DNA of 64,000 nucleotides from Acidimicrobiia bacterium (lineage in GTDB: Bacteria; Actinomycetota; Acidimicrobiia; Acidimicrobiales; Aldehydirespiratoraceae): the NCBI GenBank assembly GCA_022821685.1, contig JAJEDD010000018.1:62655-126654 (forward strand), read 5' to 3'. Below are positions 39,806-48,455 of the stretch, one piece after another (positions within the stretch are counted from its first letter, which is position 1; each line of letters opens with the position of its first letter). The position numbers and the translations under genes were made by a program. The notes below the pieces were generated by a model. That model searched no databases, was not told the origin of the DNA, and was given only the letters and a program-made list of their open reading frames with translations.

Positions 39806-40219
39806 TCAGCGAGCCGGGATGACTTGGATCAGTTCATGGCTGTCCAGGGCTCGGCCGATGCCAGCGTCGGCGGTGACGAGCGGGCGGCCGAGGCTCTCAG
39901 CAAGCCCGACATACAGTGCGTCGTAGAAGCTGAGGCGGTCGCGCATCTGCCAGGCCCGCTCAGCCAGGCCGCCGTGATGGGGGTGGCGGCGAGCGATCAT
40001 CGCCTCGGCCCGGCGCCGGGCGACCGCGGCGGCGTCGGCATCGAGCTCGCCCCTCAGCACCAGCCCTCGAAGCGCCTGCCCCGTCTCGGCATCGATGAGG
40101 AACGGCGCCACCCGTCGCCGGCCGCGGAGGTGCTGCCTCGCCTGGCGCCCGGCTTCGGAGGCATCGACCACCGCCGCGACCAGTGCGGAGGCGTCGACGA
40201 CGACGGTGCTCGGGCTCAC
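39806..40219 (-). CDS. vapC: PIN-domain toxin (VapC family)
   Basis: VVVDASALV (D), LIDAETGQ (E), FYDALYVGLAE (D), LVTADAG (D). GTGA overlap with the upstream antitoxin. Confidence 0.85.
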   Translation of the reverse strand: MSPSTVVVDASALVAAVVDASEAGRQARQHLRGRRRVAPFLIDAETGQALRGLVLRGELDADAAAVARRRAEAMIARRHPHHGGLAERAWQMRDRLSFYDALYVGLAESLGRPLVTADAGIGRALDSHELIQVIPAR

Positions 40220-40449
40220 CGGCGCCCACGGTCGATGTCGTCGAGCATCGCCTCCACGTCCAGCCTGATGCCGCGGGCCGCCACGAACCGTTCCAGGTCG
40301 GCGAACAGTTCGTCGTCCTCAGGCTCGCTCGCCAACCGCTCGACAGCCTGCTTCATGTACGCCTGGATCGACTGTCCCGCCGCTCGGGCCCGTCGCCGGA
40401 TCACCTCGTAGGCCTCTTCGGAGACATCGCGGATTTGTATTGTCGCCAT
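40216..40449 (-). CDS. vapB: Ribbon-helix-helix antitoxin (FitA/VapB-like)
   Basis: MATIQIRDVSEEAYEVIRRRARAAGQSIQAYMKQAV is typical of RHH antitoxins. ATG 40449 chosen (TATTGT -10-like box 6 nt upstream, probably leaderless). Confidence 0.8.
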   Translation of the reverse strand: MATIQIRDVSEEAYEVIRRRARAAGQSIQAYMKQAVERLASEPEDDELFADLERFVAARGIRLDVEAMLDDIDRGRR

Positions 40450-40580
40450 ACATGCACAATAGCGCAACAGCGCTGATCTGCCAGCATCAGCCAGCATCGA
40501 GAGCTCCAATTCCGCCCCAGGCGCATCGGGGCCTTCGTCGGCCGGGTTCCGGGTGAGGCTCATGCATTAGCGTCGGGCGC

Positions 40581-43500
40581 GTGACCACGGATCTTCCTCT
40601 CCGTCACCTGTCGATACGGGTTCCCTGGCACGACGCAGGCTGGAACGGCACGGTCTGCAATGACCCGGTCAACAACGCTTCGTGCCTTCGACTCGCCAAC
40701 ATCCACGAGCGGCGCGACGACGGCGTCGAGGTCGAGCTGCACGGCCGCCGGATCGATCAGCTCACACGGTCTCAGCAGCCGCCGTGCGTGGCTGAACGGG
40801 CGAGTTTCATGGCGGACTTTCCGATCACCCGCCGGATCCAGCACCCGTACTTCAAGACATCAGATGTCCACAAGCACTACCGGCCGACGCCCGTCGAACT
40901 CCCGCCGTACACGGCCGGTGCGGTGCCGTTCCGATGGGTGCTGCGGAGGGAGGCAGTCGAGATCGCAGACTCGCTCGACATCGTCTTCCACGACGAGGCT
41001 GAGGACGACGTCCGAGCGGTGCTGGGGTTCGAGACGGCGTGGGTGCAGGACGTTGACAACCAGACTCGGATGCTCGACGCGTTTTTCTCAGCAATCGAGC
41101 CGGACCGCTCGCTGGCCTTCATCTATGCGAAGGAGGTTCCACACACCGAGCAGTCGGGCCGGGTCCTGATCGGAGTCGGGTGGGTCGCGAGCTATGGGCC
41201 GGCAATCGAGTACGACTACGAGCCGGGAGAAGACCGCCCCACTCGATCAATGATCTGGGAACGGATCGTTCAACACTCGATCCGCGCCGGCACGACTGAT
41301 GGCGGATTCCTACTGCCGTACCACGCGGCGCTCGAACGAGTCGTCCAGGATCCGTCTTTCAACCCGGAGGATGTGGTCGTCTTCGCTCCCGACGAGGCAT
41401 TCGACCAGTTCTCGTACGGTTCAGAGCATGTGACCCACGATCAAGCGATCGCCTCGCTCCTCGCCATCATCAACGGTTTACAACGAGCAGAGGAATCGCT
41501 GGGCATCAGCTATGCCGCGGAAATCCGCTGGAGCCAGGACCGGCTCGGCGAACTCTGGAAGCTGCGAGGCCCGTTCCCGGGGCTCGGATCGGCACTCGCT
41601 GCCTTCAGCATCGATCACGCGAATCTGCTGGCGTTTCGGATCACCGATGGACTGTCGGAGACGGACGATCCATGGCCTGCGGTGCAGGCCGCCCTCGACG
41701 ACCCGACATCAATCGGACCTGAGTGGGTGGGTCGTATCGGACCGACGATTGCCAGGAAGCTCGCTGGCCTGCCCGACGAGCGTCGGGCCCTGCTCCACCT
41801 GCTGGCTCGATTCGACCTGTCTGCGGAGCAGGCAACCCGCTTCTACGTGCGGGAGGAACGCAAGAAGGCCGGGATCTCGGTCGACGACTCGGATCTGCTC
41901 GAGAATCCGTACCTTCTGTACGAAGCAGACCGGATCAGCCCGGACGCAATCCCGGTGACTGTTATCGATCGAGGCTCGTATCCACCTTCCGCCGCGACCT
42001 CAAGCCTGCCGATTCCCGCGCCGTCGGCGATGGAGGAGGCTCAGGATCGTCGGCGCGTGCGGGCACTGATGGTGTCGGAGCTTGAAGCATCCGCCGAGAT
42101 CGGCCACACCTTGCTTCCGCAAGACCAACTGGTCACCGCGGTTCGGGCCATGCCGCTCGACCAGCCCTGCCTTATCGACGGAGATTTACTCGCCGTAGTC
42201 GAGGACACTCTCAAGCCTGCCATCCAGCCGGCCATGTTCGATGATCAGCAGGGTCACCAACTCGATCGTCTCTCAGCAGCGCGAACCCGTATCAGCAACG
42301 AGGTCCGCAAGCGAGTCGCCACCAAGAAGCGTCATGTCGTTGAGGCCGACTGGGGAGCCGTTCTCAACGAACTGCTCGATGTCCCAGCCTCCGAGGATGA
42401 CGACGAGTTCCTCGCACGGAAGGAAAAGGCGGCTGCACTCGCCGAACTCGCCGCTGCGAGGTTCGCTGTACTGGTCGGCCCAGCCGGAACCGGCAAGACC
42501 ACCTTGCTGGCCGCGTTGTGCAAAGACCCAGTGATTCGGGGGGCGGGCGTGACTCTGCTCGCGCCCACGGGCAAGGCGCGGGTGCAGCTCGAACGAGGCC
42601 TCGGCGATGTCGCAGGTGTGCGTGCCCGCACGATTGCCCAGTTCCTCGTCCGATCCGGCCGGTATGACCCCGATACATCTCGGTATTGCCGGTCATCCGA
42701 TCCGCCCGCGGTCAAGGGCGGAACGGTAATCATCGACGAGGCATCGATGATCACGGAGGAGCAGCTCGACGCCGTTCTCGACAACGTGAGCCAGATCGAA
42801 CGGCTGATCCTCGTCGGTGATCCTCGGCAGCTTCCGCCGATCGGCGCAGGCAGGCCGTTCGTCGACATCGCTGAGTTCCTCAAAGACGGCGCAGCCGCGG
42901 ACCTCCCGAGGGTCGGCCCGTCATACGCGGAGCTGACGATCCCCCGGCGGCAGCGTCCCGGCACCGACTCAGACGAGTTCCGGCACGATCTCGCCCTCGC
43001 GCAGTGGTTCGGCGGCGAAGCCCCGAGCGCGCTGGCCGAGGAGGCGTGGGGGCAGGTTCTGGCAGGATCTCACAACGAAACCCTGCGATTCGAGCAGTGG
43101 GACTCACCCACCGAGGTCTTCGAGCGACTCCGGCATCTGCTCGTTGAAGAGATCGACGAGATTGCCGACATCGACGATCAGGCCGGCTTTGGGAAGTCGC
43201 TCGGCGGTGTTGTCAAAGGCGACTATGTGTACTTCAACAGGAGCCACTCGAACAACCGTGGCGCTGGTGAAGCAAGCGAGAACTGGCAGATTCTGAGCCC
43301 GATCCATGCTACCGCCGCAGGCAGATCCGAGTTGAACCGCTCGGTCCATCGGCACTTCCGAGCTGATCTGATCGCCTGGGCGCGAGAGATACCCCGCTTC
43401 GGCAGGAAGGTTCCCAAGCCCATGGGGCCGGAGGGCATCGTCTACGGCGACAAGGTGATGAACAACCGGAACGACCGACGCGACGATGTCTACCCTGAGC

Positions 43501-44348
43501 AGTTCCCCGACGGGAGTCCCACCGACGGTCCAGCGGCGTTTGTAGCCAACGGCGAAATCGGAATGGTCGTCGGCCAATTCAAGCGTCGTGGACAGAAGTT
43601 CAAGGTCACCAGGCTGAAGGTGGAGTTCTCGACACAACTGGGCTTCGAGTACGGGTTCGGTCGCCGGGATCTGCCCAAGGACGGCGGCGATCCAATCCTG
43701 GAACTGGCATACGCCATCACCGTTCACAAGTCGCAGGGATCGGAGTTCGGAACAACCTTCCTTGTGATCCCGAACCCTTGCCATCTGCTGTCGCGAGAGC
43801 TGCTGTACACCGCGCTCACTCGCCAGCGGGAACGAGTTGTCGTTCTCCACCAGGGTCCGTTGGCCGACCTGCTCTCGTTCTCGTCGGTCAAGCATTCGGA
43901 GACAGCTCGGCGATATACGAACTTGCTCCGGGATCCGCGGCCCCAAGATGTTGGTGGCGACCGGTTCCTGGACGCCAACCTCATCCACCGAGCGGCCAAC
44001 GGAACCCTGGTGCGCTCGAAGAGCGAAGTGATAATCGCCGACGCGTTGTCAGCGGCTGATGTGGAGTTCGCCTACGAGAAGGAGTTCCGGGGCCATGACG
44101 GCAGCCTTCGACTCCCGGACTTCACGGTTGAGGACGCCGCTACGGGTGAGACCTACATCTGGGAGCACCTGGGGATGCTGTCCAATCCGCAGTACGCCCA
44201 TGCCTGGGAGCGGAAGCGGGAGTGGTATGCGGCCAGCGGGGTCGAGGAGGGCGGCGGCGATGCTGCGACGCTGATCGTCACCAGGGACGACGAACGAGGT
44301 GGGATCGACTCGGCCGAGGTACAGGCCAAGGTACGAGAGATCGCGTGA
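40581..44348 (+). CDS. 1255-aa multidomain protein: unassigned N-terminal region of about 600 aa, RecD/AAA_30-type SF1 helicase core, and a C-terminal Vsr/DUF559-like PD-(D/E)xK nuclease-like domain
   Basis: VLVGPAGTGKTT, LLAPTGKARVQL, VIIDEASMI, LILVGDPRQLPPIGAGRPF, GDKVMNNRN, NGEIGMVV, YAITVHKSQGSEF. The C-terminus reads SKSEVIIADAL...LRLPDFTVED...TYIWEHLGM. GTG start. Third-position GC is visibly lower than in neighbouring genes. Confidence 0.85.
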   Translation: MTTDLPLRHLSIRVPWHDAGWNGTVCNDPVNNASCLRLANIHERRDDGVEVELHGRRIDQLTRSQQPPCVAERASFMADFPITRRIQHPYFKTSDVHKHYRPTPVELPPYTAGAVPFRWVLRREAVEIADSLDIVFHDEAEDDVRAVLGFETAWVQDVDNQTRMLDAFFSAIEPDRSLAFIYAKEVPHTEQSGRVLIGVGWVASYGPAIEYDYEPGEDRPTRSMIWERIVQHSIRAGTTDGGFLLPYHAALERVVQDPSFNPEDVVVFAPDEAFDQFSYGSEHVTHDQAIASLLAIINGLQRAEESLGISYAAEIRWSQDRLGELWKLRGPFPGLGSALAAFSIDHANLLAFRITDGLSETDDPWPAVQAALDDPTSIGPEWVGRIGPTIARKLAGLPDERRALLHLLARFDLSAEQATRFYVREERKKAGISVDDSDLLENPYLLYEADRISPDAIPVTVIDRGSYPPSAATSSLPIPAPSAMEEAQDRRRVRALMVSELEASAEIGHTLLPQDQLVTAVRAMPLDQPCLIDGDLLAVVEDTLKPAIQPAMFDDQQGHQLDRLSAARTRISNEVRKRVATKKRHVVEADWGAVLNELLDVPASEDDDEFLARKEKAAALAELAAARFAVLVGPAGTGKTTLLAALCKDPVIRGAGVTLLAPTGKARVQLERGLGDVAGVRARTIAQFLVRSGRYDPDTSRYCRSSDPPAVKGGTVIIDEASMITEEQLDAVLDNVSQIERLILVGDPRQLPPIGAGRPFVDIAEFLKDGAAADLPRVGPSYAELTIPRRQRPGTDSDEFRHDLALAQWFGGEAPSALAEEAWGQVLAGSHNETLRFEQWDSPTEVFERLRHLLVEEIDEIADIDDQAGFGKSLGGVVKGDYVYFNRSHSNNRGAGEASENWQILSPIHATAAGRSELNRSVHRHFRADLIAWAREIPRFGRKVPKPMGPEGIVYGDKVMNNRNDRRDDVYPEQFPDGSPTDGPAAFVANGEIGMVVGQFKRRGQKFKVTRLKVEFSTQLGFEYGFGRRDLPKDGGDPILELAYAITVHKSQGSEFGTTFLVIPNPCHLLSRELLYTALTRQRERVVVLHQGPLADLLSFSSVKHSETARRYTNLLRDPRPQDVGGDRFLDANLIHRAANGTLVRSKSEVIIADALSAADVEFAYEKEFRGHDGSLRLPDFTVEDAATGETYIWEHLGMLSNPQYAHAWERKREWYAASGVEEGGGDAATLIVTRDDERGGIDSAEVQAKVREIA

Positions 44349-44418: not shown

Positions 44419-44448
44419 TTGACAGATGTCACACCCCTATGGGATGAT
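44419..44448 (+). promoter_or_regulatory. Candidate promoter for the HNH gene (leaderless transcript)
   Basis: TTGACA at 44419-44424, 18-nt spacer, GATGAT at 44443-44448, and ATG at 44455. The surrounding intergenic region is AT-rich. Confidence 0.35.
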
Positions 44449-44454
44449 GTCTTC

Positions 44455-46077
44455 ATGTTGATTGAAGCCGCCCGCCGGGTTGAAGCCGCCGCCAAGGAGA
44501 TGCTGTCGGCGACGAACGACCCCTCGGTGTCTTGCGACGAGGCGCGCCAGGTGCCGGCGGTGTGCAAGTCCGCGATGGCGGCCCTGGCAGCCGCCCAGAC
44601 TTCTGCGGCTGCAGTTGTCGCTGGGGTGGAGCGCCACGGCGACGGAGGCGTGCAGGTGCTCGCGGACGCTGCCGGCTTGTCGCGGCAGGACGCGGTCGGA
44701 CGAGTCAAGACGGCCAAGGCGGTCGGGGCAGTGCCGGTGGTGCGCGATGCGGTGGAATCGGGGCAGGTGTCGCAGGCCAACGCCAAGCGACTGGCGGAGG
44801 CCATCGAGAAGACCAGCGCTGAGGCTGTCGAGTCCGACACCGAGTTGCTGTCCAAGGCTGCGTCGATGCGCCCCGAGCAGTTCACCAGGGAGGCCCGAAG
44901 GTGGGCGGCCGACCACCAGGGCGACGGCGGGGAGGGCGACTACCGGCGCCTGCGGGAGCGACGGCGTGTCCGGGTGTGGGACTCAGAAGAGGACGGGATG
45001 GTGCACATCCACGGCGAGTTCGACCCCGTCGCCGGACATCGGATCGGCAACCGGCTGCGGGCCGTGGCCGGCCGCCTCCATGACCTCGACAAGGCGCAGG
45101 CGAGCAACAAGTCTGAACGGCGCAGCTTCGATCAGTGCATGGCCGAGGCCCTGGACAGCCTCACGGCCGATCACCTCGCCGACCACCAGAACTGCGCCGA
45201 CAACGCCGCTGCGGGCCGCGGCTCACGCAACCGTTCGAGCGTCCGGTCAGGCCGCGGCTCAGACGACCGGTCAACAGTCGAGTCAGGCCACGGCTTAGAG
45301 GCCGAGCGAATAGGCGAGCGATTCCGGCCCATACGGGCGAGGCCGTGGCCCGAGCGGCCCGTGAGCGCAGCGAACAAGAGCGGGAAAGACACCCTTGCGA
45401 CGCGACTGGCTCTCACCTATTTGCGCGCCCTCTTAGACAACCGGCCGGGCGTCGGCTCAGGCCACGGTGCGGGCAGCCGTTCAGGCGCCGACACTGGCAA
45501 CAGTAGGCGCGACGGTAGCGGCAGACCTATCGCTGACATCTGCGTGGTGGCACATGTGGACAGCGACACCGGCAACCTCGTTGCCGAGCTTCCCGACGGT
45601 ACGCCGCTGCCAGCGGCAGTGCTTGAGGAACTCGCCTGCAACGCCAGGCTCACGGGCGTCGTCTTTGACCGTAACGGCAAGCCGATCTGGCGCACCGAGT
45701 CGAAGCGCACCGCCACTGAGGCCCAGCGGCAGATCCTCCTCGCCCGCGACGGGGGCTGCTTCCACTGCAAGTCCCACCCGACGCTGTGCCAGATCCACCA
45801 CATCAGACCGGTCTCCCAGGGCGGATCAACCCGACTCGACAACATGGTTCCGGTCTGCTGGGACTGCCACCAGAAGATCCACCACCACAAGTGGCGGATC
45901 CGCACCACCAACGGTGTGCACACCCTTCACCCGCCAGGGCAAGTTCACTACGGACCCGCGTGCGCCCCGGAAGAACCGACCCTGTATCTGCCGGGTGCCG
46001 ACCCGCCACCGACGGCGTCCACCCCCGCTGAACACTCCCGACCCGCGGCCCGCAGCCGGCTGTTCGCGCTCACCTAG
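44455..46077 (+). CDS. DUF222 / HNH endonuclease (REP13E12-type) carrying an in-frame MITE insertion
   Basis: N-terminal DUF222-like helical region. C-terminal HNH CFHCKSHPTLCQIHHIRPVSQGGSTRLDNMVPVCWDCHQKIHHHKW. ATG 44455 preferred over TTG 44419. Confidence 0.85.
   Translation: MLIEAARRVEAAAKEMLSATNDPSVSCDEARQVPAVCKSAMAALAAAQTSAAAVVAGVERHGDGGVQVLADAAGLSRQDAVGRVKTAKAVGAVPVVRDAVESGQVSQANAKRLAEAIEKTSAEAVESDTELLSKAASMRPEQFTREARRWAADHQGDGGEGDYRRLRERRRVRVWDSEEDGMVHIHGEFDPVAGHRIGNRLRAVAGRLHDLDKAQASNKSERRSFDQCMAEALDSLTADHLADHQNCADNAAAGRGSRNRSSVRSGRGSDDRSTVESGHGLEAERIGERFRPIRARPWPERPVSAANKSGKDTLATRLALTYLRALLDNRPGVGSGHGAGSRSGADTGNSRRDGSGRPIADICVVAHVDSDTGNLVAELPDGTPLPAAVLEELACNARLTGVVFDRNGKPIWRTESKRTATEAQRQILLARDGGCFHCKSHPTLCQIHHIRPVSQGGSTRLDNMVPVCWDCHQKIHHHKWRIRTTNGVHTLHPPGQVHYGPACAPEEPTLYLPGADPPPTASTPAEHSRPAARSRLFALT
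45295..45436 (+). mobile_element. MITE-like element, copy g (142 bp, inside the HNH CDS)
   Basis: ttagaggccgagcgaataggcgagcg...ggccgtggcccgagcggcccgtgagcgcagcgaacaagagcggg...ctcacctatttgcgcgccctcttag, flanked by TTAG on both sides. Confidence 0.9.
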
Positions 46078-46213
46078 CACCGGGTTCGATGAGTCCACCC
46101 TGTTCAAGCCCGCCGGCGAGTTGGATCCCCACCAGCCCGAGTCGCATGGCGCTAGATCTGAAGCACACGGTGTACGGACCATCGCCAGGCAATACTGTGC
46201 TACAATGTAGAAC

Positions 46214-46477
46214 ATGGTTGAGATCGGGATCAGGGCGCTCAAGCAGAATGCTTCCGGAGTGGTTGCTGACGCGGCGGCCGGTGAGGTGGTCACCATCACC
46301 CTGCGGGGCCGTCCGGTGGCCCGGATGACCGCCATCGCAGCTTCGCAGCTGGAAGAGCTGGTTGCGTCGGGCCGGGCCCGCCCGGCTCGGGGAGACATCA
46401 GGGACTTGCCCGCTCCGCGGGAAGGGCCCCGTCTCTCGGAGCTGCTGGAGGCCATGCGGGCCGAGGAGCGATACTGA
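46214..46477 (+). CDS. Phd/YefM-family antitoxin
   Basis: MVEIGIRALKQNASGVVADAAAGEVVTITLRGRPVARM is typical of Phd/YefM. TACAAT lies 7 nt upstream of the ATG (leaderless). Confidence 0.85.
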   Translation: MVEIGIRALKQNASGVVADAAAGEVVTITLRGRPVARMTAIAASQLEELVASGRARPARGDIRDLPAPREGPRLSELLEAMRAEERY

Positions 46478-46479
46478 CC

Positions 46480-46878
46480 GTGGCCCACTACCTGGACACG
46501 TCTGCGGTGGTCAAGCTGATCGTTCGGGAACCCGAGACGGATGCACTTCGATCTTGGCTCGCGGCGGAGGACCGCGAGCCTGTCTCTTGCGATCTGACCC
46601 GCACGGAGCTCATGCGGACTGTGAGGCGCGCCGCTCCCGACCTCGCTACCCGTGCCAAACGAGCACTCGACAAGATCACGCTCACGCAGGTGACTACCGG
46701 CGTGTTCGAGCGGGCGGGACAACTCGAGCCCGTCGCGCTGCGCAGCCTGGATGCGATCCATCTGGCCGCTGCTCTGAGCTTGGGCGACGATCTCCGTGGA
46801 TTCGTCACCTATGACCGGGCACTGGCTGGTGCAGCCCGCTCCTGCGGCATCGAGGTGATCGCCCCCGCGGGTGTCTGA
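46480..46878 (+). CDS. vapC: PIN-domain toxin (VapC family)
   Basis: YLDTSAVVKL (D), TRTELMR (E), SLDAIHLAAAL (D), FVTYDRAL (D). Starts 2 nt after the antitoxin stop. Confidence 0.85.
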   Translation: MAHYLDTSAVVKLIVREPETDALRSWLAAEDREPVSCDLTRTELMRTVRRAAPDLATRAKRALDKITLTQVTTGVFERAGQLEPVALRSLDAIHLAAALSLGDDLRGFVTYDRALAGAARSCGIEVIAPAGV

Positions 46879-46889
46879 TCGCGGGGCGG

Positions 46890-47352
46890 TCAGGTCTTGA
46901 GCTGGGCGATTAGCTCATCGGGGGTGGATGCGGGGGACTGGCAGGCGAAGTGTCGGCACACGTAGGCGAAGCCCTCGGGGCGGTTGTGCCATAGCGGGGA
47001 GTCGTAGGGCTCGTCCCAGGCCAGCACCGCGTTGGGCAGGTAGCGGGTCTGCGTCGCGGTCACAGATCTGGGCGGTTGCCCATCACTGCGATCTCGTCGG
47101 TGCCGCTTGCGGCGAGGTCCAGCGCCTCCAGCGCTCGGTCGAAGGCGGTGGGGTGCTGTGCTGCGGCTGAGCCGAGCAGCTCGATGATGCGGCGGGCGTG
47201 GTCGCTGTAGCGGGGCTCGCCGGTCAGCGCGGTCAGCCGCAGCAGCCCGCAGGCCGCCAGCGACTGGGCTGACGGGGTGGCGTTGTCCATCAGGTCTTTG
47301 GGCCGGGTCACCAGCTTCTCGGCGTCGTCGCCGGTGGTGAACATGCCCCCGA
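46890..47352 (-). pseudogene. Frameshifted duplicate of the 3' end of yyaL (copy of 48456-48918)
   Basis: Roughly nine in ten positions match 48456-48918 by eye. A 1-bp deletion near 47060 splits the reading frame (...GNRPDL / [40 protein letters not shown]...). Confidence 0.85.
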
Positions 47353-47382
47353 ACTCTGTCGTCGAAGCCGGGCCGCACCCGG

Positions 47383-47541
47383 ATAGGCGCCACCGGAGTG
47401 GCCAACCTCTACGAGATCACCGCCCACCTGCGAGGCGAGGCCGGTGACCGCCAAGTAGAGGGAGCCAGAGTCGGCCTGGCCCACGTAATTGGCCTAGCCT
47501 CAGCCTGCGGAGTCCACATCCTGGAAAAATCAGCCGCCTAA
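47383..47541 (+). pseudogene. Duplicate of the last 52 or so codons of the thiolase gene (copy of 39376-39534)
   Basis: Reads GATGVANLYEITAHLRGEAGDRQVEGARVGLAHVIGLASACGVHILEKSAA*, compared with GATGVANVYEITAHLRGEAGHRQVEGARVGLAHVIGLASACGVHILEKAAA* in the intact gene. Confidence 0.85.
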
Positions 47542-47680
47542 CCGGTCAGCCGAGGCTGGGTTCGTGGCGCGTCACTCCGAAGCGTCGATGGCCAGTGTGC
47601 CGGCCGTGCCTGAGCGCCGACCGGGTGGTCGGGATGCCGCTCACATCCCTTGGACTGTCAGATGGGGGGTGCTGGCTTGG

Positions 47681-48100
47681 TTACGGGTGGACTGTGAAGG
47701 CCCGGCGGCGGCCGGGTCCGTAGCGGTAGACACGAAAGTCGTTGTCGAGGGCCAGCGCGTCGACGATGGCCAGTCGCTCCATCAGCGCCCAACTCGTGCG
47801 ATCGGTGAGCGAGAAGGCTTGATCGGCGAAGGCCGCCGCAGCTGCCTCGGCCGCGGCGAGATCGGCGGAGGTGACGCATTCGACGCGGGCAATCCCGGCT
47901 GTGACGGTGGCTACGGCCCGGTTCGCAAGAGCATGGCCGACGCGCGCATTCACGAGGTTCCACAACTCGGCGAGGACGAGGTCGCTGGTGAGCAGTGCGC
48001 CCTCGTGATCTTTCAGGAGCGTTCGGGCAACTGCGCTGTGGGCGTCGCTGTCGTCGGCGGCGGCATACCAAATGCTGGTGTCGACGAAGGTGTGGGCCAT
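47681..48100 (-). CDS. vapC: PIN-domain toxin (VapC family)
   Basis: FVDTSIWYA (D), VLAELWNL (E), LTDRTSWALM (D), ALALDNDF (D). Confidence 0.85.
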   Translation of the reverse strand: MAHTFVDTSIWYAAADDSDAHSAVARTLLKDHEGALLTSDLVLAELWNLVNARVGHALANRAVATVTAGIARVECVTSADLAAAEAAAAAFADQAFSLTDRTSWALMERLAIVDALALDNDFRVYRYGPGRRRAFTVHP

Positions 48101-48103
48101 CGG

Positions 48104-48352
48104 CTAGAGACCTTTGGCTGCGAACTGCTCATCGATGGCTCGGCTGATCATGGCCTGCTTGCCGTCGGCGATCCTCGACCCTCCACTGTCGAACAGCCCG
48201 AAGATCGCCGAAGGGTCGCCTGCCGGCGCTTGCGGCTCCAGATCACGGGCGACGAGACGGCGGATGTACTCCGACAGCGAGATGCCGTCAAGAGCCGCCC
48301 GGCGCTTGGCCGCGGCGTGGTGGTGGTCCGGAATCACGATCATCGTTCTCAT
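48104..48352 (-). CDS. vapB: Ribbon-helix-helix (CopG-like) antitoxin
   Basis: MRTMIVIPDHHHAAAKRRAALDGISLSEYIRRLVARDL. ATG 48352 chosen. Stop lies 3 nt before the vapC ATG. Confidence 0.8.
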   Translation of the reverse strand: MRTMIVIPDHHHAAAKRRAALDGISLSEYIRRLVARDLEPQAPAGDPSAIFGLFDSGGSRIADGKQAMISRAIDEQFAAKGL

Positions 48353-48360
48353 GCCCTCAG

Positions 48361-48395
48361 TATGGCATATGAAGCAGAGCATAATCTATGCCATA
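48361..48395. promoter_or_regulatory. Inverted repeat (candidate antitoxin operator/promoter) upstream of vapB
   Basis: TATGGCATA-N17-TATGCCATA in an AT-rich patch directly upstream of the RHH antitoxin start. Confidence 0.45.
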
Positions 48396-48455
48396 ACTTC
48401 TAGGCAGTGGAGCTAAACCCCTGCATCCGGCGAAGAGTGCCGGAAGTTCAACCAG

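Follow-up and report, generated by a model that had tools for sequence, protein, structure and literature searches.

In this work, we have analysed one gene in a 64,000-nucleotide stretch of DNA (hereafter the window) from a contig of an Acidimicrobiia bacterium. The gene, an open reading frame (ORF) at 40581..44348 on the plus strand, starts with GTG and encodes a protein of 1255 residues, which on the evidence of profile matches belongs to PDC-S68, an already catalogued family of phage-defence candidates. We have found that its first 310 residues, as a predicted structure, resemble the YTH and EVE domains of the PUA-like superfamily, and that this region stands ahead of a RecD-like helicase and a probable nuclease. 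The reading that we favour, plausible though somewhat short of probable, is that the gene encodes a single-polypeptide anti-phage enzyme, in which a base- or nucleotide-sensing domain would license an ATP-driven helicase-nuclease in a manner similar to type IV restriction. Overall, the arrangement is suggestive of a helicase-coupled, reader-licensed restriction that is assembled from different parts than the known systems.

Family membership and domain layout

The PADLOC model of PDC-S68, PDLC05065, matches the protein with E=0 and 1490.7 bits, aligning residues 6-1254 with profile positions 4-1218 of 1221, and two more PDC-S68 models match it as well (2e-164 and 3.4e-125). In the PADLOC catalogue, PDC-S68 is given as a single-gene system, without domain annotation or mechanism. 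A literature search by the name PDC-S68 has found no paper, 'S68' is absent from the main text of the preprint of Payne et al. (bioRxiv 10.1101/2024.01.29.577857), and in the literature that we have searched and read, no helicase-nuclease of the RecD type is described as carrying a YTH/EVE-like domain. The features of the gene are as follows.

40581..44348, plus strand: whole gene, 1255 amino acids, full-length member of the PADLOC candidate family PDC-S68 (match to PDLC05065)
40581..41510, plus strand: residues 1-310, predicted PUA-like (YTH/EVE-type) domain with family-specific insertions, no curated sequence family
40605..40685, plus strand: residues 9-35, opening motif H9..R13-V-P-W16-H-D18..W21.G23..C26..P29..N32..C35
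40785..40787, plus strand: codon of Cys69, the third near-invariant cysteine (325/326)
41118..41336, plus strand: residues 180-252, core strands, with Y182, K184, P187, R194, G198, W226, H232, R235, G242, P246 and Y247
41511..42008, plus strand: residues 311-476, all-helical region by the model (holding the segment 398-432), with weak sub-threshold HHH_RecD2 matches in relatives
42009..42416, plus strand: residues 477-612, RecD-type N-terminal domain (matches to 1w36_D, TIGR01448 and phrog_4412)
42417..43850, plus strand: residues 613-1090, superfamily 1B (SF1B) RecD-like helicase core (AAA_30, UvrD_C_2 and motifs)
43878..44345, plus strand: residues 1100-1255, probable restriction-endonuclease-like (PD-(D/E)xK-type) nuclease (weak profile matches)

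An original prediction, made from the sequence alone, had described positions 40581-42400, which correspond to residues 1-606, as an N-terminal region of no recognisable family. This description holds for residues 1-476, as Pfam, NCBIfam, PHROGs and PDB sequences give no match before residue 477, either by single sequence or by profile. It does not hold beyond that, since the PDC-S68 profile spans residues 6-1254 and RecD-like sequence begins at residue 477. The Pfam scans covered the whole protein at E<=1, and residues 1-310, 311-480, 401-612 and 1101-1255 together with 36 family members at E<=10; on the whole protein, they give nothing before residue 604.

With residues 1-480 as the query, 1216 proteins are matched at E<=1e-3 among 8000 scored candidates, and an exhaustive search gives 1487 cluster representatives, 295 of which are at E<=1e-30. 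Because the alignments of homologues begin at residues 4-8 and only 8 more codons are open upstream of the start, the ORF start is credible. The N-region is shared by more than 1000 homologues that align from these residues, and is thus neither a chance ORF nor a mis-started one.

The residues from 477 onward are those with recognisable relatives. Residues 18-356 of Escherichia coli RecD (1w36_D) align to residues 477-808 (E 1.2e-20), the match to the RecD2 model TIGR01448 starts at residue 486, and phrog_4412 matches residues 486-763. As RecD aligns over 477-808 and TIGR01448 from 486, the last quarter of the supposed 600-residue region is ordinary RecD equipment; that is, the match to a housekeeping RecD-type N-terminal domain, which had been named as an argument against a distinct domain, does exist for residues 477-612, but not for residues 1-476. 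Of the proposed one or two distinct domains, the PUA-like one (residues 1-310) is suggested by the models, and the region as a whole divides into at least three modules, i.e., residues 1-310, the helical residues 311-476 and the RecD-type residues 477-612. The protein scores 179.6 bits against TIGR01448 (cut-off 500) and 139.1 against the RecD model TIGR01447 (cut-off 310.15), missing both equivalog cut-offs. Judged from these profiles, it is RecD-like in its motor and the N-domain of that motor, yet not an orthologue of RecD or RecD2.

The helicase core contains Pfam AAA_30 at residues 617-764 (E 2.2e-27) and UvrD_C_2 at 1042-1088 (E 6.5e-14). Its motifs are Walker A (GPAGTGKT, 633-640), Walker B (DE, 719-720), motif III (745-755) and motifs V/VI (1047-1082), and all of them are invariant in 28 diverse homologues. 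The start of Walker A at residue 633 agrees with the earlier statement that the N-region has no P-loop. For the nuclease region (1100-1255), no match is found in Pfam or PDB sequences, and the weak matches are HEAT_CxxC_PDDEXK at 1137-1186 (E 1.1e-4), PDC-S69 at 1126-1221 (E 3.7e-4) and the endonuclease family phrog_29037 (E 0.0054). In the same 28 homologues, K1147, E1149, P1179-D1180-F1181 and E1195-H1196 are invariant. The C-terminal domain is thus a probable nuclease of the PD-(D/E)xK type according to its profile matches, and with catalytic motifs invariant in the 28 diverse homologues, the motor looks functional at the level of sequence, and the nuclease may be so as well.

The segment at residues 398-432, which had been read as helical, is also helical in the predicted structure, and it carries the conserved residues R410 (287/300 aligned N-regions) and Q417 (291/299). 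For the surrounding helical region, 10 of the 36 family members show sub-threshold HHH_RecD2 matches (best E 1.9e-5, weak). In the numbering of each relative, the best stretches are at residues 484-520, with one relative matched over 411-513. From these weak RecD2 signals in relatives, the fold of residues 311-476 may be helix-hairpin-helix-like (HhH-like) at most.

Fold and conservation of residues 1-310

Alignments of natural homologues served to build two AlphaFold models, both of high confidence, one for residues 1-480 (predicted local distance difference test, pLDDT, 92.9; predicted template modelling score, pTM, 0.91) and the other for residues 1-310 (pLDDT 95.7, pTM 0.93). The 310-residue model was then compared with 48,161 chains in an exhaustive VIA-align search. 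The top row is the YTH domain of Mmi1 (5o8m_A) at 7.3, with a root-mean-square deviation of 3.4 and 122/134 residues aligned, followed by PH1033 (1wmm, 6.7) and the YTH domain of YTHDC2 (6k6u, 6.3). Further down are the EVE-HNH restriction enzyme VcaM4I (6yex, 5.9), THYN1 with DNA containing 5-methylcytosine (5mC) (5j3e, 5.7), residues 13-122 of DrmA (7s9w_A, 5.0), an ASCH domain (5guq, 4.9), the archaeal McrB N-domains (6n0s, 4.7; 6p0g, 3.8), and ASC-1/TRIP4 (8alz and 9kyk, ~3). In these alignments, the predicted beta-barrel fold covers most of a reference domain of the PUA-like superfamily. By eye, and without a statistic, 'SLAFIYAKE ... RVLIGVGWV' also resembles the EVE hairpin 'AFFYHS ... 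GVAGICEVV'. Overall, the modelled structure is suggestive of a YTH/EVE-type PUA-like fold for residues 1-310. The earlier proposal that the N-region recognises a nucleic-acid feature thus gains support at the level of fold only.

The reference structures account for only ~120-138 of the 310 residues, and the remainder are insertions, i.e., a Cys-bearing helical one at residues ~24-80 and another helical one at residues ~117-170. The strands predicted in the model are at residues 178-183, 195-205, 228-232 and 242-244, and the opening motif forms strand 1 and the beginning of the Cys-bearing insertion.

Conservation was counted in an alignment of 326 N-regions. W16, Y182, H232 and P246 are identical in 326/326, C69 and W226 in 325/326, and C26, N32 and C35 in 325/325, while the aromatic and histidine residues W16, W21, W119, W154, Y182, W226, H232 and Y247 are conserved at 95-100%. 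All five strings quoted in the original prediction are found in the protein (residues 10-43, 180-202, 224-235, 242-252 and 398-432), and its conserved blocks indeed consist of residues that are 95-100% identical. The opening motif at residues 10-43 (nucleotides 40608-40709) is likewise present and conserved, but to call it Trp/Cys-rich is overstated, as there are three cysteines (26, 35 and 69) besides C530, and two Trp in the motif. C26, C35, C69 and H232 would make a candidate metal site, and the conserved aromatics may line a putative pocket.

Defence context, proposed mechanism and alternatives

For the neighbourhood of the relatives, 130 flanking ORFs (>=140 aa) were called in 21 of 28 intact loci, of which the 81 largest were scanned and 49 dropped. 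A PADLOC match (E<=1e-12) is found within 5 kb at 16/21 of these loci, on 34/81 ORFs. The matched proteins include DrmA, DrmB, and DrmD with a DUF1156 methylase and a helicase of the phospholipase D (PLD) type; parts of type I, IIG and III restriction-modification (RM) systems; and ThsA (Thoeris), HamB (Hachiman), a PycTIR-like effector, PD-T4-6 and PtuA. Of the plasmid loci, seven were inspected; in four of them the gene has DISARM, a type I RM system, a NACHT protein or a type ISP enzyme as its neighbour, the last of these 19 bp upstream. The other 5/21 loci, among them the three closest Acidimicrobiia relatives, are without a PADLOC match. This neighbourhood supports a defence role, and in part it re-derives how PDC-S68 was picked. 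Signs of mobility also count in favour of our reading, namely the low GC content of the gene, its patchy distribution and the lack of flank synteny with the closest relatives.

Based on the above analyses, the favoured mechanism would run as follows. The reader-like domain would sample the bases of invading DNA, perhaps stabilised by a metal site of Cys26, Cys35, Cys69 and His232. The enzyme would be licensed when this domain recognises a feature foreign to the host, the likeliest candidate being a hypermodified base and not plain 5mC or N6-methyladenine (6mA). Using ATP, the SF1B motor of the RecD type, together with its RecD-like N-domain and HhH-like helices, would then translocate 5'->3' on DNA, and the C-terminal restriction-type nuclease would cleave the DNA. 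The analysis itself shows the order of the domains, the resemblance in fold, the conservation of the motifs and the setting among defence genes; the binding of nucleic acid or bases, the ligand, the metal site, the licensing and the nuclease activity are inferred from these. That base or nucleotide sensing by the N-domain should license translocation and cutting is proposed by analogy with McrB, SauUSI, DrmA and the fusions of PUA-superfamily sensors with nucleases. McrB and SauUSI couple PUA-superfamily readers to NTP-driven motors, and in other restriction enzymes a modified base, flipped out or single-stranded, is held by the YTH/EVE fold. Fusions of PUA-superfamily sensors with nucleases are described as modification-dependent restriction enzymes (PMC6765204, PMC7897488), and the N-terminus of DrmA is termed EVE-like in PMC12458937.

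Several observations weigh against this mechanism. At the level of the family, PDC-S68 is a candidate only and is described as untested; according to the preprint, the PDCs are 145 untested candidates, picked because of their location inside BREX, DISARM or type I RM loci (bioRxiv 10.1101/2024.01.29.577857). As for the fold, the insertions make up more than half of the domain of residues 1-310. Foldseek with both models against PDB, and against BFVD, gives no match at E<=0.001. The lowest E-values reached are 0.077 and 0.086, with EVE and YTH entries found repeatedly in the weak rows (E 0.08-1). ESM Atlas gives no usable match, and hhalign against 14 EVE domains from genomes of the phylum returns a probability of 0.07. 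Because neither Pfam at E<=10 (including EVE, PF01878) nor a PDB profile search gives a match in residues 1-310 or 1-480, homology of residues 1-310 to base readers is unproven, and PUA-like domains have non-reader roles too. As for the effector, the nuclease assignment comes from weak matches (E 1e-4 to 5e-3), and a lysine at the canonical position is not apparent.

The methylation of the host bears on the trigger. Its 3.19-Mb genome gives 5 full-length and 1 partial C5-methyltransferase matches, as well as 11 N6_N4_Mtase matches over the cut-off, and N6_Mtase is matched strongly at least 7 times, which suggests many RM systems, and the relatives are often directly beside methyltransferases. 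Therefore, a context-free trigger of 5mC, N4-methylcytosine (4mC) or 6mA would be self-destructive, and we argue against any of these plain marks, read regardless of context, as the trigger. The possibilities that we consider are hypermodified phage bases, a context-specific mark, the reading of self marks, and an alarm by free methylated nucleotides. A bolder form of the proposal, which we regard as distinctly unlikely, is that a metal-bound new branch of YTH/EVE-like readers proof-reads the strand fed by the motor base by base and cuts at a non-host hypermodified base, or else is switched by self marks from neighbouring methylases or by methylated nucleotides from the breakdown of host DNA.

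Compared with the named systems, the protein shows no structural difference from PDC-S68, having the same family, length, N-region, RecD-like helicase and C-terminal nuclease. SauUSI, by its description in PMC6765204, is similar to our proposal in that a modified-base sensor, an ATP-driven helicase and a nuclease are in one polypeptide. Its order is, however, reversed, with the PLD nuclease at the N-terminus, the DUF3427 reader at the C-terminus and a helicase of the SF2 type, and every part here is of another family, namely a YTH/EVE-like domain, an SF1B RecD-like motor and a REase-like nuclease. Membership in SauUSI can be rejected, as neither PLD nor DUF3427 is among the best 25 of 30 Pfam matches (E<=1) and the helicase is SF1B. 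McrBC with YTH/EVE-like McrB N-domains (archaeal; 6p0g, 6n0s) has a motor in the form of an AAA+ GTPase ring and its nuclease McrC as a separate protein, whereas the protein here has an SF1B helicase as its motor and carries its nuclease in the same polypeptide. The EVE-HNH endonucleases of the VcaM4I/TspA15I type have no motor, an HNH nuclease and an EVE domain that is detectable by sequence (Pfam EVE), in contrast to the domain here, which cannot be detected as EVE by sequence and is twice as long. DrmA of DISARM (class 1, YprA-like) is an SF2 helicase with no fused nuclease, and its partners are DrmB, DrmC and a methylase. PUA-Cal-HAD also uses a PUA-like domain as the sensor of an anti-phage effector, but as described (bioRxiv 10.64898/2026.01.15.699771) it has a free nucleotide ligand, m6-dAMP, and dNTP-depleting effectors, with no helicase or nuclease. 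By analogy, we propose that the protein follows the logic of ATP/GTP-dependent type IV restriction (McrBC, SauUSI) with parts from other families; it may work alike without being a member.

If the bolder form of the proposal is true, in either of its versions, one protein would couple epigenetic reading to processive DNA destruction, unlike McrBC, SauUSI and DISARM. PDC-S68 is widespread, with more than 1000 homologues in many bacterial phyla, one archaeon and large plasmids, and its first 480 residues have been without domain annotation. A reader-type fold ahead of a RecD-like helicase-nuclease offers a testable mechanism with named residues (W16, Y182, H232 and C26/C35/C69). In case the domain reads modified bases, it would represent a new reader family together with a new motor class (SF1B) for modification-dependent restriction, might yield epigenetic tools, and would help to explain such genes within DISARM, BREX-like and RM loci. 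In case it senses self methylation or alarm nucleotides, a recently described sensing principle would be extended.

Other ways of linking the N-domain to the helicase-nuclease need to be weighed. ASCH and PUA domains bind RNA, and the PUA-like domain could similarly bind unmodified single-stranded DNA, RNA, DNA ends or replication intermediates and recruit the helicase-nuclease to phage forks or linear ends, like Nhi or Dna2. We consider such a sensor of structure or strand unlikely, though still a serious candidate. The best structural matches are YTH and EVE base readers rather than PUA or ASCH domains, the near-invariant aromatic and polar residues suggest a specific pocket over a generic surface, and the matches to Nhi and AbiO are limited to the P-loop region with E ~1e-3.

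It is also conceivable that the domain binds a modified mononucleotide set free as a phage breaks down the methylated host chromosome, and that this binding would turn the helicase-nuclease on and lead to abortive infection. The sensing of m6-dAMP by a PUA domain in PUA-Cal-HAD (bioRxiv 10.64898/2026.01.15.699771), the unusually rich methylome gene set of the host and the embedding of relatives beside methyltransferases are all in line with this idea. We nevertheless find it improbable, because a DNA motor and nuclease, as the effector is here, requires DNA as its substrate and does not deplete nucleotides, and the words 'helicase', 'REase' and 'SF1' are absent from the main text of the same preprint.

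The methyltransferases near the relatives might be read in another way, namely that the domain recognises host methylation, often deposited by an adjacent methyltransferase, and keeps the enzyme from attacking self DNA, leaving the unmethylated DNA of invaders to be degraded. In Paracoccus the type ISP enzyme is 19 bp upstream, a MTase_III, MTase_I, type IIG or DUF1156 methyltransferase is adjacent or close by in seven loci (L058, L065, L068, L072, L077, L080 and L087), and DrmA of DISARM likewise has a domain called EVE-like at its N-terminus (PMC12458937). However, no methyltransferase or other PADLOC match is nearby in the window and in 5/21 related loci, PADLOC files PDC-S68 as a single-gene system, and the adjacent methyltransferases are of differing types with no single conserved partner, which makes self-mark reading decidedly improbable in our estimation.

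Many single-protein defences, such as Avs and several helicase-based systems, sense phage proteins, and the original prediction had raised this alternative for the N-region. In this case, the N-region would bind a phage protein such as a single-stranded DNA-binding protein, a DNA mimic or a terminase and thereby relieve autoinhibition. The large family-specific insertions could make a protein-binding face. Yet the fold is that of nucleic-acid and base readers, and a surface that tracks diverse phage proteins would not usually be as strongly conserved as this domain is between Actinomycetota, Proteobacteria and an archaeon; we therefore rate this alternative as very improbable. Finally, a housekeeping repair or recombination helicase-nuclease (RecD2- or AddAB-like) with an accessory N-domain, for which the RecD/RecD2 similarity from residue 477 on and the location near dnaE and metabolic genes might speak, is extremely improbable given scores far under the RecD2 and RecD equivalog cut-offs, the presence of the gene in only 3/401 genomes of the phylum (own genome included, and one, G226, unpublished) and in none of the same-order genomes listed among them, its anomalous GC content, the frequent disruption in relatives and the defence neighbours.

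Relatives and genomic setting

Relatives are found in Acidimicrobiia (84% identity), Nocardioides, Chloroflexota, Verrucomicrobiales, a cyanobacterium, Alpha-, Beta- and Epsilonproteobacteria, Bacteroidota, Gemmatimonadota, Acidobacteriota and an ANME-2 archaeon, and they are present on 24 plasmid records. The swapping of the N-region onto other effectors (nucleases, TIR, SIR2), which the original prediction had expected of a defence sensor, is not found among the matches listed. In these (120 of 1216, 150 of 1487 and 120 of 228), there is neither a fusion to HNH, PLD, TIR or SIR2 nor a stand-alone N-domain; the N-region pairs there with the same P-loop/helicase Pfam set or appears without any Pfam domain, and this helicase core is its only partner there. 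Longer variants keep the full core and add a C-terminal domain. In P0183, a Schlafen AlbA_2 domain is at residues 1255-1390, and P0181 has ~260 extra residues of unassigned kind. On a Chondrinema plasmid (L010, 7968-15786), a 1493-aa variant is followed on the same strand by genes for an NTP pyrophosphohydrolase and a DEAD/DEAH helicase.

In species genomes, we have inspected 38 loci, of which 28 are intact (1224-1340 aa), 5 are interrupted, 2 are N-only remnants and 3 are at or near contig ends. The interrupted loci are L053 (8506-11831, with two insertions of ~1 and 2 kb) and L052, L054, L067 and L074 (frameshifts), and the remnants L084 and L085 retain just the first 80-125 residues. Some of these broken copies could be assembly errors in metagenome-assembled genomes. 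Where the cause could be checked, it is a frameshift, an insertion or a contig end; the short N-only entries of databases should therefore mostly be broken or truncated genes and not a stand-alone sensor.

Two side observations concern individual relatives. The model PDLC03632 ('MTase_III') matches near the gene in two unrelated genomes, in a Caldilineaceae (L058:2486-5242, E 1.8e-275) and in a Pyrinomonadaceae (L087:10802-13750, E=0); its ORF abuts the gene in L087, a NERD-helicase ORF intervenes in L058, and it may be a recurrent partner. On the IncC plasmid of Vibrio fluvialis (L006, 8968-15608), a distant homologue with 29% identity in the N-region is ~0.7 kb upstream of a Qnr-family gene and an IS3 transposase according to the record annotation.

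In the window, the GC content is 0.61-0.65 within the gene and ~0.70 in both flanks, that is, the gene is compositionally foreign. Because GC stays slightly low (0.64-0.69) up to ~48.6 kb, the foreign segment may reach that far. Outside the gene, tblastx against the eight closest loci gives only short scattered matches and no flank synteny, and at E<=1e-12 PADLOC matches 0/27 other window ORFs of >=280 aa, which serve as the control for the loci of the relatives, nor does it match the neighbours. The scan shows neither a promoter-like site upstream of the PDC-S68 gene nor a terminator-like one in 39.6-46.3 kb, and a tRNA is likewise absent within 30-56 kb. The neighbouring ORFs with domain matches are listed below.

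39806-40219, minus strand: PIN-domain ORF (PIN, E 4e-9)
40216-40563, minus strand: FitA-like ribbon-helix-helix (RHH) ORF (FitA-like_RHH, E 5.4e-7)
44419..46077, plus strand: DUF222 and HNH endonuclease ORF (DUF222 E 2e-21; HNH E 1.4e-8), 70 bases downstream of the gene

The first two ORFs overlap by 4 bases and are divergent from the PDC-S68 gene. By their domain matches, they appear to form a VapBC-type toxin-antitoxin pair (39806..40563, minus strand), which is given as context and not claimed as a member of the system. The RHH match begins at ORF residue 40, and the true start may be further in. The single promoter-like site is at 44419-44448, at the start of the DUF222 and HNH ORF. Further on, in 46100-48400, the ORFs at 45826-46761 (minus), 46890-47405 (minus) and 47564-48403 (plus) are without a Pfam match and come before a gene for a DUF255 thioredoxin-like protein. 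Other genes nearby encode a thiolase, a nitroreductase and dnaE. In the rest of the host genome (G000), the methyltransferase matches are located on contigs C7, C15, C38, C19, C13, C30, C1, C18, C29, C42, C34, C9 and others (L028-L049).

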